This document shows positions 43,051 through 47,630 of a stretch of DNA of 64,000 bases, one piece after another. Below the pieces are notes generated by a model. It was not told the origin of the DNA, searched no databases, and saw only the letters and a program-made list of their open reading frames with translations. Each line of letters begins with the position of its first letter. Position 1 is the first letter of the stretch. This DNA comes from a bacterium. Its GTDB lineage: Bacteria > UBA8248. The DNA is taken from assembly GCA_965207065.1 (NCBI GenBank), contig OZ242260.1, positions 1,216,001 to 1,280,000 of the forward strand, in the 5' to 3' direction. Made by a program: the position numbers and the translations under genes.

Positions 43051-43434
43051 ATGCGCTCGCAAGGGGGTATCCTTGTTCTGGCGGTTGCGCTCGCTCTGAT
43101 GCTCAACAACCTGTATTTCGCGGTCAGCCCCAAGGCGGCCAAAGGTGTTTTTCATTGGCTTGATGCAGCCGTCATCGCCGCGCTGGTTTTCGTTCTTGTC
43201 GCGAACATTCGCGGTTTGATGAGCAACGAAGCCGTATGGCACCGGGTCGTGGCGGCGATAGCGGCTGGTGTTCTGGTGAATTTTTACGCCTATAACTATC
43301 TGGCCAAGATGGCGGACAGCGGGCTGGAGAGCGGGACCCTGTGGCTGGTTCTGGTGCCTTTCACGGTTCCCATGCTCGCCTATGAGGGGTTTTTGATGAT
43401 TCGCACGTCCGGACGGGAGCGAGATGGAAAATAA
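43051..43434 (+). CDS. Hypothetical 4-TM membrane protein
   Basis: GGAGG RBS before ATG at 43051; four hydrophobic segments. Confidence 0.6.
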   Translation: MRSQGGILVLAVALALMLNNLYFAVSPKAAKGVFHWLDAAVIAALVFVLVANIRGLMSNEAVWHRVVAAIAAGVLVNFYAYNYLAKMADSGLESGTLWLVLVPFTVPMLAYEGFLMIRTSGRERDGK

Positions 43435-44185
43435 ATCCTCGATTCAAGGACACGTGGCGCTCGTCACGGCGGGTGCGGTGGGAATCGGCGAAGCGACCGC
43501 CGAGCGCTTGGCGTACGAGGGCGCGCGCGTCGCGCTGCTCGACCTCGACGAGGCGAAGGGCGAGGCCGCCGCGCGGCGGATACAAGCCGAGGGCGGGGAG
43601 GCGCGCTTCATCAATACAGACGCCACTTCGTCGAACGAGATCAAGGCGGCCGTGGAGGCGGCGCTCCACGCCTGGGGACGCATCGACATTCTCGTGAACT
43701 GCGCCGGCGGTTTCGTGGAGAATCCCGCCATCGAGGATCTGGACGAAGCGCAGTGGCGCCGCGTCGTGGACCTCAACCTGAAGAGCGTCTTCCTGTGCGC
43801 GCGCGCCGTTATGCCCTTTATGAAGAAAGCGCGCTACGGCCGCATCGTGAACATCGCCTCCCAGGCGGGCCGTGACGCCGTCGCGGAGACGGGCCTCGCC
43901 TACGGCGCGGCCAAAGCGGGCCTGTTCGGCTTTTGCAGGCGGCTGTCGGTCGAGGTGGCGCCCCACGGCGTCACCGTGAACACGGTGGCCCCGGGCGTGG
44001 TGCTCACCCCGAGGACGGCCGTGGTCCATAAGGACAGAATACCCGAGATAGTCGCGAAAATACCGGTGGGCCGCGTGGCGGACGCCGCGGACATCGCCGA
44101 CGCCGTATGGTTTCTCGCCAGACCCGAAGCGCGCTACGTTACGGGCGTGACGCTCGACGTCAACGGCGGCAGGTACGTCCACTAG
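43424..44185 (+). CDS. SDR family oxidoreductase (FabG-like)
   Basis: VTAGAVGIG, DILVNCAG, YGAAK, VNTVAPG, DVNGG. Confidence 0.92.
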   Translation: MENKSSIQGHVALVTAGAVGIGEATAERLAYEGARVALLDLDEAKGEAAARRIQAEGGEARFINTDATSSNEIKAAVEAALHAWGRIDILVNCAGGFVENPAIEDLDEAQWRRVVDLNLKSVFLCARAVMPFMKKARYGRIVNIASQAGRDAVAETGLAYGAAKAGLFGFCRRLSVEVAPHGVTVNTVAPGVVLTPRTAVVHKDRIPEIVAKIPVGRVADAADIADAVWFLARPEARYVTGVTLDVNGGRYVH

Positions 44186-44198
44186 AAAGGGAATTCAC

Positions 44199-44957
44199 GT
44201 GCATGAGCGATCCTCCATCAAAGACCACGTCGCCATCGTCACCGGCGCGACGGACGGCATCGGCCTGGCGACGGCGATACGCTTCGCGGACGAGGGCGCG
44301 AAGGTGGCCATCCTGGGGAGAGACCCCGAGCGGGGATCGGCGGCTCTGGCCCGGGTGAGTTCGCACGGCGAGGCTATTTACGTTCAGGGCGACGCCGCGC
44401 GGAAAGAGGACATCGACCTTCTTTTCGCTCGCGTGCTCGGCACCTGGGACCGCCTGGACATTCTGGTGAACTGCGCGGGCGGCTTCGTGGAAGTGTCCGA
44501 CATCGAGGACCTCGACGAGGCGGAGTGGGAGAAGATCGTGGACTGGAACCTCACGAGCTGCTACCTCGCCACACGGGCGGCGGCGGTCCCCATGAAGGAG
44601 CGCGGCTACGGCCGCATCGTGAACATATCCTCCATCTCCGCGCGCGACGCCCTGGCGAACGTATCGCTGGTGTACAGCGCCGCGAAATCCGCCATGCAGG
44701 GCTTCACGCGGCGGCTCGCGGTGGAGCTCGCCCCTCACGGCATCGCCGTGAACGCCGTGGCCCCCGGCGTAACGCTCACCAAACGCTTTCGCCTCATCCA
44801 CCAGGAACGCGTGCCGCAGATAGTGGCGAACCTGCCCGTGGGCTTCGGCGGGGAGCCGGAGGACATCGCCGACGCGATATGGTATTTCTCCACTCCCGGT
44901 TCAGGCTACGTCACGGGTGCGACCATTGACGTCAACGGCGGCCAATATGTGAACTGA
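44199..44957 (+). CDS. SDR family oxidoreductase (tandem paralog)
   Basis: VTGATDGIG, DILVNCAG, YSAAK, VNAVAPG, DVNGG. Confidence 0.92.
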   Translation: MHERSSIKDHVAIVTGATDGIGLATAIRFADEGAKVAILGRDPERGSAALARVSSHGEAIYVQGDAARKEDIDLLFARVLGTWDRLDILVNCAGGFVEVSDIEDLDEAEWEKIVDWNLTSCYLATRAAAVPMKERGYGRIVNISSISARDALANVSLVYSAAKSAMQGFTRRLAVELAPHGIAVNAVAPGVTLTKRFRLIHQERVPQIVANLPVGFGGEPEDIADAIWYFSTPGSGYVTGATIDVNGGQYVN

Positions 44958-45069
44958 CGGGCGCCTTCAATCATTTCGGTTCTGAACACCTGAAATTCCG
45001 ATATTTCGCGGATTCGTGGTATCATCTGAGGTCACGAGAGTTCCAAGCCGTCTAAACACCTGAGGAGCC

Positions 45070-45474
45070 ATGCAAATGCGATATCCCCTGCTTATGTTTG
45101 GTTTGGCCTTGCTCGCCGCCGTCCTGGTTTTGCCGCAGGCCGCGACCGCCCTGGAAGGGTGGAAGCCCTATGACGCCAAGGCGTTCGCCCAGGCCCAAAA
45201 GGATGGAAAGACGATTTTCGTAGCCGTCCACACCGACTGGTGAGGGACGTGCAGGCAGCAGGTGCCGCTGCTTCAGTCACTGGTTAAAGAGAAGGAATTC
45301 GCAACCGCCGCCGCGTTCGAGTTGGACTACGACGCCCAGCGCGATTTTGCGAAGGCGCTCGGCGTTCGCTGGCAATCGACGATCATCGTCTTCAAGGGCG
45401 CGCAGGAAAAAGGCCGCTCGACGGGCGACGTGGATATTGCGAGCATCCGGAGCCTCATGGAACGCGCGCTATAG
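45070..45474 (+). CDS. Exported thioredoxin-family protein with in-frame TGA (probable selenocysteine, WUGTC)
   Basis: GAGGAG RBS, ATG at 45070/45076. Reads MQMRYPLLMFGLALLAAVLVLPQAATALEGWKPYDAKAFAQAQKDGKTIFVAVHTDW-[TGA 45241-45243]-GTCRQQVPLLQSL...LGVRWQSTIIVFKGAQEKGR...ERAL*. Confidence 0.82.
45244..45280 (+). promoter_or_regulatory. Putative bacterial SECIS hairpin
   Basis: Stem AGGCAGC/GCTGCTT, loop AGGTGCC starting 17 nt after TGA with G at position 2; bulged lower stem GAC..TG/CA GTC. Confidence 0.65.
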
Positions 45475-45523
45475 AACGGGCGTTCCGGCGCATCAAGGGC
45501 CCGCTTCGGCGGGCCTTTGCGTC

Positions 45524-46579
45524 TTACCCGAGCGGCGAGACGGAGACCTCCCCGTCCCTGACGGCAATTTCCGTCCCGTAAGGGGCAGAGAATCTCTGCA
45601 TCATCTCCACGATCACGCGGCCCTCTCCTCGCTTCGGCGAAAGAAGCCTAGGCGCGCCGCCCACGCCGCAGTAGCAGGGAATGAGGTGGAGGTCGCTCAA
45701 CCCGTCTTTATCCATCCGCCCGCCCAGCAGAAAAGTCTGAAGCGTCGCATCCGTGAAGAAAGGTTCGACCTCGTCAAAAATCAGATTCCCGCTGCAGTGA
45801 ACAATGGGCCGGCCATCGTAGAACTCGATCGCCGAGAGAACGTGCTGGTGCCCGCCGAAGACGGCGCACGCGCCCGCGTCGATTGCCGCTTGCCCGATCT
45901 CCCTTTGATGCTCATGCACCTCGTGACGCATGCTCGCCCCCCAGTGCTGGTAGACGAAAACCAGGTCGACCTGTTCCTTGAGCCGCACAATGTCTTCTTT
46001 CATCCGCGCGAGGTCCTCCGCTACCGCCCAGGAGTGGATGACGGGTTCAGAAGCCGGGTATTCGTCCAGGTTTCTGAGCGGCGTGTAGGACGTTCTGACG
46101 CGCAGCGGGTTCACGCCGGGTTCGTCCGGCCCGGCCGCGTGGCCCTGCGGCAGTACGGACGAGTAGGCGAGAAGGGCCACCCTCAACCCCCCGCGCTCCA
46201 GGACAACGGGGGCTCTCGCTTCTTCTGATTCCATTCCCGCGCCCGTAAACGGGATGGCGGCGCGTCGCAGGGTCAACATCGTTTCCTCGAGCGAGAGCAC
46301 TCCGTAGTCGAGCAGGTGGTTGTTCGCGATTCCCACTGTATCGAAGCCGGCATCCACGAGTCCCGCCACCAGCGAGGGGTGCCCCCGGTGCTTGGTCGCC
46401 TTTCCCTTCATGAGTTCGCCGCGCGTCGATAGCGCGTTCTCGAGGTTCGCGAAAGAAAAATCTGCGTCACGGAGCAGTTTTCCCAGTTGGCCGAACATTC
46501 CCTTGGCCGAAGCCCTGTCGGGCGCAATGTCGCCTCCCGTGAGAAATGAGGCGGTGTTTTGCGTATTCTTTTTATTCAT
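45524..46579 (-). CDS. CapA family (poly-gamma-glutamate synthesis-like) metallophosphatase
   Basis: GGDI, ANLE, IANNHLLDYG, HWG, GGHQHVL, SGNLIF. Confidence 0.88.
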   Translation of the reverse strand: MNKKNTQNTASFLTGGDIAPDRASAKGMFGQLGKLLRDADFSFANLENALSTRGELMKGKATKHRGHPSLVAGLVDAGFDTVGIANNHLLDYGVLSLEETMLTLRRAAIPFTGAGMESEEARAPVVLERGGLRVALLAYSSVLPQGHAAGPDEPGVNPLRVRTSYTPLRNLDEYPASEPVIHSWAVAEDLARMKEDIVRLKEQVDLVFVYQHWGASMRHEVHEHQREIGQAAIDAGACAVFGGHQHVLSAIEFYDGRPIVHCSGNLIFDEVEPFFTDATLQTFLLGGRMDKDGLSDLHLIPCYCGVGGAPRLLSPKRGEGRVIVEMMQRFSAPYGTEIAVRDGEVSVSPLG

Positions 46580-47630
46580 GGCTGGGTCCTCTGTGAAAAC
46601 AGGCAGAAAATGATGCGACGTGCTCCCCGGGGTCAAGGCTTCTTAGTCTATCGGCGGCGCACTCTGGAGCCACTTCGTTGATGTGCGCGCCAAGGCCCGT
46701 CTCCAGACCCGCCAGGGGCGTGAGGCGCGGGAAAAGCTCGATGTGCCAGCGATGCGCCTTAAGGTTTTCTTCGGAGCCATTCGCTGCGAGCAGAAACGAG
46801 AGGTTAACGGGCGGGTCGTGGAGAAGCTTCTTATAGCGCCTTAAGGTCCGCGCCAGCGCGGCTCCGACGGTGGCGAGCGTCTCGGGCGCGCTCTCGGTGA
46901 ATAAAGTTTCCGTCGGCCAGGGGGTAATGCAGGTGAGATAGGGAAAGCGCGAGCCCCAGGGGCAGAACACGGCGGCACCTTCTTCCCCCATCTCCACCAT
47001 CCTCTCTTCTTGCGCACGCTCCTCCTCTATCATGCGGCCCAAAAGCGTGCTCTTTCGTTCCTCGTAAAAGACCGCCTCTCGTTCGAGTTTCTTCTCGACA
47101 CCGCCCGTCCCGACCGGGAGGCCGAGTATCTGAAAATGGGAGTGGAGGATGGACGCGCCCGCCTTTGCGCCGTGATTCTTGAAGGCATAGACGCAGCGAA
47201 TGCCGGGGGCCCCGGCGAGCGCCCGCGCCCTCTCCTGCAGCAGGCCGATGACAACACCCGCGTGCGCTTCTCCCAAATCAGCGAGGCTCTTCGTGTGATG
47301 GGGCGAATCGATGAGAACCTCGTGGCGTCCACCGCCGCGCAGGGACGTAAAAAAACCCTCTCCTTCGCGTTCAATCTCCCCGCTTCCCGCGGCGGGAAAT
47401 TTGTTCGCCACGCAGCGCGCGCGCCAGCCGGGCGCGTTCTCCACGCTCTCGTCCCTGATGGCTGCGACCTCGGGCGGTGTTTCGCTCTCGTTGCCCGGGC
47501 AGAAAGGGCAGGCCGGGTCTTCTTCTTTGGGCGTAGCGTTCGCGAAATGCGCCGGATGGGGCCGCGCGCGCCTGCCCGGCGCGATGAGCGTCCATTCCCC
47601 GCGATGCGGATCGTATCTCGACTCGGGCAT
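46572..47630 (-). CDS. galT: Galactose-1-phosphate uridylyltransferase family protein
   Basis: CPFCPGNE, NKFPA, GRHEV, FKNHG..AGAS.LHSHFQ (HxHxQ), HWH-like RWHIE. Confidence 0.85.
   Translation of the reverse strand: MPESRYDPHRGEWTLIAPGRRARPHPAHFANATPKEEDPACPFCPGNESETPPEVAAIRDESVENAPGWRARCVANKFPAAGSGEIEREGEGFFTSLRGGGRHEVLIDSPHHTKSLADLGEAHAGVVIGLLQERARALAGAPGIRCVYAFKNHGAKAGASILHSHFQILGLPVGTGGVEKKLEREAVFYEERKSTLLGRMIEEERAQEERMVEMGEEGAAVFCPWGSRFPYLTCITPWPTETLFTESAPETLATVGAALARTLRRYKKLLHDPPVNLSFLLAANGSEENLKAHRWHIELFPRLTPLAGLETGLGAHINEVAPECAADRLRSLDPGEHVASFSACFHRGPSHE

Follow-up and report, generated by a model that had tools for sequence, protein, structure and literature searches.

The window analysed here is a stretch of 64,000 nt, positions 1,216,001 to 1,280,000 of a single 4.48-Mb contig (OZ242260.1 of assembly GCA_965207065.1) from a bacterium of the GTDB lineage UBA8248, and all positions below are counted from its first letter on the forward strand. 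At 45076..45474 (+) the window very probably holds one intact gene for an exported thioredoxin-fold selenoprotein, a coding sequence of 132 codons plus TAG with one in-frame UGA for selenocysteine (Sec, U in the one-letter code). The original prediction, made from the sequence alone, had described a ribosome-binding site GAGGAG, an ATG at 45070 or 45076, and one frame running through HTDW-TGA-GTC to a hairpin AGGCAGC-AGGTGCC-GCTGCTT that resembles a selenocysteine insertion sequence (SECIS), its loop starting 17 nt after the UGA with G in the second loop position. All of these are present exactly as described. The Shine-Dalgarno-like GAGGAG, read directly at 45062..45067 (+), lies 8 nt before the ATG at 45076 and 2 nt before the ATG at 45070. 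From either ATG a single frame runs to the TAG at 45472-45474, and its sole interruption is the TGA at 45241-45243. With this TGA read as U, the product is MQMRYPLL...HTDW-U-GTCRQQ...MERAL. The list of open reading frames (ORFs) splits the gene into 45070-45243 (57 aa) and 45262-45474 (70 aa), and gives nothing else for it.

The ATG at 45076 is the only start conserved among the orthologs described below, and the ATG at 45070 is replaced in most of them, which mostly read K/T-Q-M-R-R. We took 45076 as the start because of this conservation and its better spacing from the ribosome-binding site, so that the precursor is more likely to be 132 aa than 134 aa. Thus, the Sec-thioredoxin of the original prediction stood, but its length of 134 aa did not, since that length belongs to the alternative, non-conserved start at 45070. 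A predicted Sec-type (general secretory) signal peptide occupies 45076..45150 (+), with M-R, a hydrophobic core and A-T-A before a presumed cleavage site ahead of LEGW. The orthologs repeat this pattern: a basic residue comes first, a hydrophobic stretch of about 17 residues follows, and positions -3 and -1 are small (AxA, SxA or TxA). Signal-peptide-like n-, h- and c-regions with AxA can also be read in the homologs. Judged from this N-terminus, the protein is probably exported to the periplasm. The Sec-encoding UGA at 45241..45243 (+) is residue 58 in the 134-aa numbering, which is used for residues below, or residue 56 when counted from 45076. The active-site motif U-G-T-C (TGA GGG ACG TGC) reads directly at 45241..45252 (+).

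The SECIS-type hairpin lies at 45253..45273 (+). Its arms AGGCAGC (45253-45259) and GCUGCUU (45267-45273) make a 7-bp stem around a 7-nt loop AGGUGCC (45260-45266), 16 nt separate the UGA from the loop (the first loop base is the 17th), and the second loop base is G. The hairpin alone has an energy of -8.7 kcal/mol and forms the apical element of a -15.2 kcal/mol fold of the UGA with the following 42 nt. The rules for bacterial SECIS elements (bSECIS) set out in section 5 of one review are a loop of 3-9 nt, a stem of 4-16 bp, a G within the first two bases of the loop, a distance of 16-37 nt to the UGA and an energy of -7.5 kcal/mol or lower (PMC13188914), and the window hairpin lies within every one of them with its 7-nt loop, 7-bp stem, 16 nt and -8.7 kcal/mol. 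As far as the consulted descriptions of the fdhF-type SECIS of Escherichia coli and the bSECISearch consensus go, the window hairpin shares with them its position inside the coding sequence, spacing, loop, stem and a loop-2 G followed by G-U. On the other hand, it has no sequence similarity to the E. coli elements, as is usual for bSECIS, and it occurs in two registers within the clade. An extended lower stem (alignment columns 13-17 with 45-49) was also tried. It is paired in 83% of cells with no compensatory change, and it is not claimed here, being broken in the window's own sequence and in divergent members.

We examined whether the TGA is conserved. With the read-through protein as query, the window's own genome and 40 related ones (41 in all) gave 21 orthologs with 50-87% identity to the window copy. 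Besides the window copy itself, they come from 19 of the 22 further genomes in its genus and from one genome of a sister genus (20 genomes in genus g1 and one in genus g2). The TGA stands at the same column in all 21, each of which has one in-frame TGA in its coding part; the extra stops flagged for two orthologs come before the start codon. W-U-G-T-C is the motif of 18 and W-U-S-T-C that of three. In the 21 orthologs, the stretch of 76 codons that follows the TGA is free of in-frame stops, versus 34 and 19 stops in the other two frames, and the variable sites at codon positions 1, 2 and 3 are 53, 42 and 72 of 76. Because downstream stops are missing and third positions vary in excess, the part after the TGA is taken to be under selection as protein. 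Three other genomes of the genus (G001, G007 and G012) gave only weak generic thioredoxin matches with this query, though selB is present in them, and two of the three are single-contig genomes of 99-100% completeness. Most genomes of the genus thus carry the gene, yet some do without it, so that it is dispensable there.

More distant members of the family have Cys at the position of the U, which corresponds to the first Cys of WCxxC. In a large protein database we found 33 near-length homologs of 86-150 aa with at most 50% identity, including proteins from Xanthobacteraceae and Magnetospirillum, and all 20 of the aligned full-length homologs carry Cys there, mostly as W-C-P-T-C. The family-invariant columns are W57, C58, C61, Q64, D86, D88, T104, IVFKG, E113, R116, S117, G119, D120 and L129. 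Species-representative genomes were scanned as well, with 518 confirmed relatives as the outcome, and the best 80 of these were analysed further. Among the 56 of these 80 loci that a motif pattern could parse, 54 are Cys forms (TGC in 32, TGT in 22) and two are TGA forms, namely L055, which encodes the same protein as the ortholog of genome G016, and L107, in a groundwater metagenome-assembled genome (MAG) labelled Candidatus Tectomicrobia.

The two kinds of locus served as a natural control for the hairpin, the best perfect hairpin being taken per locus under the bSECIS rules (minimum stem of 4 bp, distance to the codon of 16-37 nt). The TGA forms have a hairpin of -7.5 kcal/mol or lower in 22 of 23 loci, always at 16 nt, with the loops AGGUGCC, AGGUUCC, AGGU, AGGC or AGUU and a GC content of 0.57 in the segment. 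The Cys forms have one in only five of 54 loci, four at 18-34 nt and one at 16 nt, with a GC content of 0.59. This tie of the hairpin to the TGA forms and not to the Cys forms is our main evidence that the hairpin is functional. The UGA and the hairpin 16 nt downstream are conserved together across two genera and the Tectomicrobia-labelled MAG.

The genome of the window carries the machinery for Sec decoding. A search of this genome found the tRNA-Sec gene (selC) with 75.9 bits against a cut-off of 47, which ARAGORN also calls as SeC with anticodon TCA. It also found selA (579 bits) and an adjoining selB (386 bits), as well as selD (334 bits), all three above the curated cut-offs. The selD gene has one in-frame TGA itself. 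It is another selenoprotein gene (G000:C1:543537-544499 on the minus strand, locus L019) with the TGA in the context GG-U-GSK. A 7-bp hairpin whose loop is G-rich stands 16-17 nt beyond this TGA, in the geometry of the window hairpin. Of the 41 genomes searched, 35 have selB, including 20 of the 21 with the TGA form.

The locus was also looked for in independent sequence data. Fourteen runs contain at least half of its sampled words, and six RNA-library runs from three studies contain part of it. A DNA contig from an independent sponge-metagenome run (X3, 16,964 nt) spans the locus with three differences, none of them at the TGA. The RNA-library contigs X19 (45049-45316) and X15/X16 (45178-45477) bridge the TGA unchanged. 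The differences look like those between strains, with 45141 C>A and 45375 A>G synonymous and 45334 G>A leading to a Thr that many orthologs share. X15 and X16 bear different study codes and are an identical 300-nt contig of identical depth covering 45178-45477. Jointly, the RNA-library contigs cover almost exactly the part from the ribosome-binding site to the stop codon, which may be taken as a weak hint. In the protein collections searched, there is no full-length relative above 50% identity, and the gene is represented by 33 fragments of 51-70 aa with 57-100% identity (pieces of 51-57 aa and of 70 aa). One public fragment is named 'hypothetical protein', and close fragments are labelled 'Nitrospinae bacterium' in NCBI.

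These data bear on most of what the original prediction had proposed to check, and none of the refuting outcomes that it named turned up. The Sec-decoding trait that it implied for the lineage was borne out by the finding of selA, selB, selC and selD. A sequencing or assembly error at the codon, for which reads with TGC or TGT would have spoken, finds no support, the independent DNA assembly and the RNA-library contigs having TGA. The expectation that standard pipelines truncate the gene proved correct, since the public sets carry only the pieces of 51-57 aa and 70 aa. As for homologs with Cys or TGA, the close ones have TGA in 21 of 21 cases, and the distant ones have Cys and are mostly hairpin-free. 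The opposite case named there, of close relatives all carrying Cys with no conserved hairpin, was not seen, a hairpin of -7.5 kcal/mol or lower being found at 22 of 23 TGA loci.

The read-through protein with U replaced by C matches the Pfam family Thioredoxin (PF00085) with 40.5 bits versus a cut-off of 23.5. An AlphaFold model built with the family alignment has a mean pLDDT (predicted local distance difference test) of 87.7 and a thioredoxin topology. The pLDDT exceeds 95 over residues 31-134 and is low (55-57) over residues 1-30, so that the fold proper starts at residue 31. In this model U58 stands directly before helix 59-72 (motif residues 58-61), that is, in the position of the nucleophilic Cys of thioredoxins. 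The best Foldseek match is 5zf2 with a target-normalised TM (template modelling) score of 0.94, a root-mean-square deviation of 0.8 and 30% identity, and the best 50 matches are thioredoxins or protein disulfide-isomerase-type chains. With the family profile, 5zpv (E = 1.6e-32) and 5zf2 (E = 6.6e-32) come far ahead of generic thioredoxins (about 1e-15). By the signature W-C/U-x-x-C-x-x-Q, D-x-D, STxIVFKG and GRSxGD, the protein is assigned to the CcdA-paired Trxlp-like subfamily. None of the established models gives it a more exact name. The equivalog for canonical cytoplasmic TrxA (TIGR01068) scores 48.7 bits against its cut-off of 96.8, with G-T in place of G-P, and the NCBIfam models for DsbE, TlpA and StoA score 19-22 bits against cut-offs of 123-230, which leaves no family-level name. 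Table 1 of the same review names selenoprotein-specific thioredoxin-like NCBIfam models, namely SaoT, HUIPC, VPGUxxT, GOS_C and TsoB (PMC13188914). In our NCBIfam scan, SaoT (NF040730), HUIPC (NF047660), VPGUxxT (NF041383) and GOS_C (NF045500) gave no match at E of 0.001 or below, and TsoB (NF045694) gave 20.7 bits against a cut-off of 805.

Profile and fold comparisons agree on the nearest solved structure, Trxlp (TRX3) of Edwardsiella piscicida (PDB 5ZF2 and 5ZPV). According to the parts of the report consulted, it has a thioredoxin fold with CXXC and reduces 5,5'-dithiobis-(2-nitrobenzoic acid) (DTNB) and insulin in vitro. Its source is a fish pathogen of the Gammaproteobacteria, and there it is described as an effector with its site of action in host cells (PMC6636751). 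Trxlp has Cys where the window protein has Sec, and nothing suggests an effector role for the latter. The thioredoxins CcmG/DsbE, TlpA and ResA are periplasmic reductants that depend on CcdA or DsbD. They are like the window protein in being small exported thioredoxin folds, and the Cys homologs, with W-C-P-T/V/I-C beside CcdA, resemble them further. Unlike the DsbE/TlpA type, the Sec forms have no adjacent CcdA, and the window showed no link to genes for cytochrome c maturation.

To place the gene among its relatives, we compared its neighbourhood with those of the best 80 of the 518 confirmed family loci. In 74 of these 80 loci an ORF of about 240 aa comes next on the same strand, and it is of CcdA type in the example scanned (L129:3378-4094; PF02683, DsbD_TM, 39.6 bits and PF13386, 38.5 bits). 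The pair of thioredoxin and CcdA-type genes of the Cys forms is a conserved two-gene redox module, the classical arrangement of a membrane electron conduit beside the periplasmic thioredoxin that accepts its electrons. The six loci without a CcdA-type neighbour include both Sec loci (L055 and L107) and L056, a Cys form described below. In the window, too, no CcdA/DsbD_TM gene comes next, the downstream gene at 45524-46636 (-) being convergent. The genome has one DsbD_TM gene that we could find (298 aa, 45.7 bits), near 315-316 kb of the contig and about 0.9 Mb away.

A quick maximum-likelihood tree was built from 76 mature-domain sequences (105 columns, midpoint root) with support from the Shimodaira-Hasegawa-like approximate likelihood-ratio test (SH-aLRT). 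In this tree 22 Sec forms and L056 fall on one side of a branch with an SH-aLRT of 99, and this Sec clade lies within the family of Cys forms. L056, a Cys form with TGT in a MAG labelled Nitrospinota, pairs with the Sec form of the sister genus (SH-aLRT 98). Its sequence at L056:3163-3195 reads W-C(TGT)-S-T-C and then a hairpin CGGAGGC-AGUU-GCCUCUG of -10.6 kcal/mol, 16 nt after the Cys codon. The genome of L056 has selB. The genes that flank the Sec-thioredoxin in the window and those that flank L056 are unrelated (E = 1.3 and 0.12). L056 is probably a Sec-to-Cys reversal with a relic SECIS, because it is nested in the Sec clade, has retained the hairpin and comes from a genome with selB. The simplest reading of the tree is one Cys-to-Sec gain at the base of the clade and a later Sec-to-Cys reversal. 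According to section 10 of the review, bacteria seldom revert from Sec to Cys, and most of the documented cases concern FdhA and SelD (PMC13188914).

On these grounds we propose the following mechanism. With the ribosome on the UGA, SelB and its Sec-tRNA(Sec) would bind the hairpin at 45253-45273 (apical loop starting with A-G-G-U), and Sec would be inserted. The precursor would then be exported via the Sec translocon and cut after A-T-A to a periplasmic protein of about 107 aa. Its activity may be that of a thiol/selenol-disulfide reductase, in which the selenolate of Sec58 would attack a substrate disulfide (or a sulfenic or otherwise oxidised species) and Cys61, as the resolving thiol, would turn the intermediate into a selenenylsulfide. 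Re-reduction would come from a CcdA/DsbD-type membrane electron conduit fed by cytoplasmic thioredoxin, a step proposed because the Cys-form homologs sit directly upstream of a CcdA-type gene in 74 of the best 80 loci. The Sec-decoding part of this scheme is strongly supported. Its other parts, namely export, partner and direction of electron flow, are what we infer.

Several observations weigh against the reading of the gene as a functional Sec-thioredoxin. The local fold is not unusually stable (66 nt, z = -1.18, 26 of 200 dinucleotide shuffles as good), and the ortholog L035, the sole exception among the 23 TGA loci, has a hairpin of only -6.5 kcal/mol. The clade sequences are divided between two stem registers, of which the one originally predicted is paired in 89% of cells with 164 of 500 shuffles reaching its covariation score, and the second (loop AGGU or AGUU) is paired in 83% with 30 of 500 shuffles and one compensatory change only, from C-G to A-U. 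The fifth codon after the UGA goes with the register: CAG fits the first, and CGG or AGG the second. RNAalifold on a 75-nt alignment gave no consensus hairpin (-3.5 kcal/mol, no covariation). This weakness of covariation is due to the closeness of the sequences and to the position of the stem within coding sequence. Moreover, selB was not found in G018, a TGA-form genome of 79% completeness, nor in the 2.3-Mb MAG that carries L107, for which completeness is not given. The patterns of the relatives scan favour Cys forms, so that its two TGA and 54 Cys loci are uninformative on the frequency of Sec forms, and the 24 of 80 loci that the motif pattern did not parse were left out of the Sec/Cys and hairpin counts. 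The RNA-library contigs do not prove transcription, as DNA is possible in such libraries; X15 and X16, being identical, may be one data set and were therefore counted as one; and a scan for sigma-70-like promoters found none for the gene. A pseudogene, with a nonsense mutation or assembly error at the catalytic Cys codon and a hairpin by chance, would account for the two fragments given by gene callers, for a fold energy unremarkable against shuffles and for the weak covariation. But it would not account for a TGA that all 21 orthologs, some with as little as 50% identity, have in one and the same column, for the lack of downstream stops in 21 sequences with an excess of third-position variation, for the TGA in an independent DNA assembly, for the full Sec machinery of the genome, or for a hairpin tied to TGA forms (22 of 23 versus five of 54). 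The conservation of the TGA effectively refutes the pseudogene, which we regard as extremely improbable. It is also very unlikely that the UGA is decoded not, or not only, as Sec, by near-cognate read-through with Trp or Cys or by Cys on tRNA-Sec when selenium is scarce, to give an ordinary thioredoxin in low yield. Such decoding would agree with Cys at position 58 in all distant homologs and with L056, a member of the clade that reads TGT despite the selB of its genome. Against it, TGA is an ordinary stop in this genome, as at the end of the gene just upstream (44955-44957), a bSECIS-conformant hairpin occupies the very place that SelB requires and is retained along with the TGA, and selA, selB, selC and selD are all intact. 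In addition, the TGA has been kept over two genera though a one-base change would give Cys, which argues that Sec itself is selected for.

Another possibility accepts the Sec-thioredoxin and gives it a function other than that of a CcdA-fed reductase: a DsbA-like oxidant, a scavenger of peroxide or hypohalite, a role in handling selenium or metal(loid)s, or an uncleaved membrane anchor. The active-site dipeptide tunes the redox potential in the thioredoxin fold, and here it changes from P-T/V/I in the Cys forms to G-T or S-T in the Sec forms. The CcdA gene is missing next to all the Sec forms examined and next to L056. The CcdA link is by analogy with the Cys homologs, and the partner is not adjacent here; moreover, the CcdA protein of a Cys locus, used as query, matched nothing in the window genome. 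Even the nearest solved relative, Trxlp, has been given a quite different role in the host in the parts of the report consulted (PMC6636751). However, the fold and W57, C61, Q64, D86, D88, IVFKG and GRSTGD are shared with the CcdA-linked homologs, so that the surface facing the partner is suggested to be alike. A DsbD_TM protein is encoded in the genome, and Trxlp is reported to reduce DTNB and insulin in vitro (PMC6636751). We consider another function unlikely, though far from negligible, and keep the periplasmic reductase as the working model of the Sec-thioredoxin.

The gene stands alone among its neighbours, with SDR (short-chain dehydrogenase/reductase)/FabG-like genes upstream and the convergent gene downstream. 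The upstream genes are a tandem pair at 43424-44185 and 44199-44957 (+), which match NCBIfam FabG-type models with 238 and 207 bits. The order of the second SDR gene and the Sec-thioredoxin appears to be kept in several orthologous loci, as judged from shared upstream frames, and no functional link between them is evident. Downstream, 45524-46636 (-) encodes 370 aa that match an MslH epimerase model only weakly (90.9 bits versus 700), and 46572-47630 (-) encodes a GalT-like uridylyltransferase (95.9 bits versus 448). Both look ordinary and unrelated to the Sec-thioredoxin. Between the gene and the convergent 45524-46636 (-), a terminator-like GC-rich hairpin, GGGCCCGC-UUCG-GCGGGCCU followed by UUUGCGUCUU, lies at 45497..45516, with no strand assigned. 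A consensus terminator scan did not list this hairpin, because its T-run is too weak. The RNA-library contigs end at 45477, ahead of it, which is a weak hint.

Thioredoxin-fold selenoproteins with UxxC are long established, and the window gene adds another of this well-known kind. The review lists 'Thioredoxin (Trx), PF00085, UxxC' as an experimentally verified selenoprotein in its Table 1, with many further Trx-like UxxC families (PMC13188914). Compared by the description in that table, the window protein is like the thioredoxin-type selenoproteins in PF00085, in UxxC with Sec first and in a UGA with an immediate bSECIS, and unlike them in its signal peptide and in its CcdA-paired subfamily. 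BSepDB is described as holding 57,630 bacterial selenoproteins in 111 families, and its Table 2 places three genomes of the GTDB phylum UBA8248 (Nitrospinota/Nitrospinae in NCBI) among the ten richest, with 48-54 genes each (PMC13326102). From this account, the lineage appears to be already known as selenoprotein-rich. In the text of one BSepDB supplement the terms thioredoxin, UBA8248, PF00085 and UxxC do not occur, though the database entries themselves were not searched, and our literature search found no paper on this thioredoxin subfamily as a selenoprotein.

The finding does not change what is known of Sec decoding or of the function of UxxC proteins. It adds an exported member to the thioredoxin-fold selenoproteins and shows a clean association of SECIS and TGA versus SECIS-free Cys forms inside one small family. 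This link, the loss of the CcdA neighbour in the Sec clade and a probable revertant with a fossil SECIS raise it slightly above routine. Because the gene is invisible in public protein sets, selenoproteome counts, redox reconstructions and homology searches will miss it without a Sec-aware tool. More tentatively, we suggest an interpretation that may prove right but for which our confidence stays somewhat short of even. On this view, no Sec form of the exported, CcdA-paired Trxlp-like subfamily may have been recognised before this one. A single change from Cys to Sec would have produced it in a selenoprotein-rich lineage that is associated with sponges and labelled Nitrospinota or Tectomicrobia. 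The thioredoxin would also have been uncoupled from its CcdA neighbour, and L056 would later have reverted to Cys with the relic hairpin and the Sec machinery retained. If this is true, the clade would be a natural matched pair of Sec and Cys forms, with and without SECIS, and would let one ask what selenium gives to a periplasmic reductase in an oxygen-exposed symbiont.

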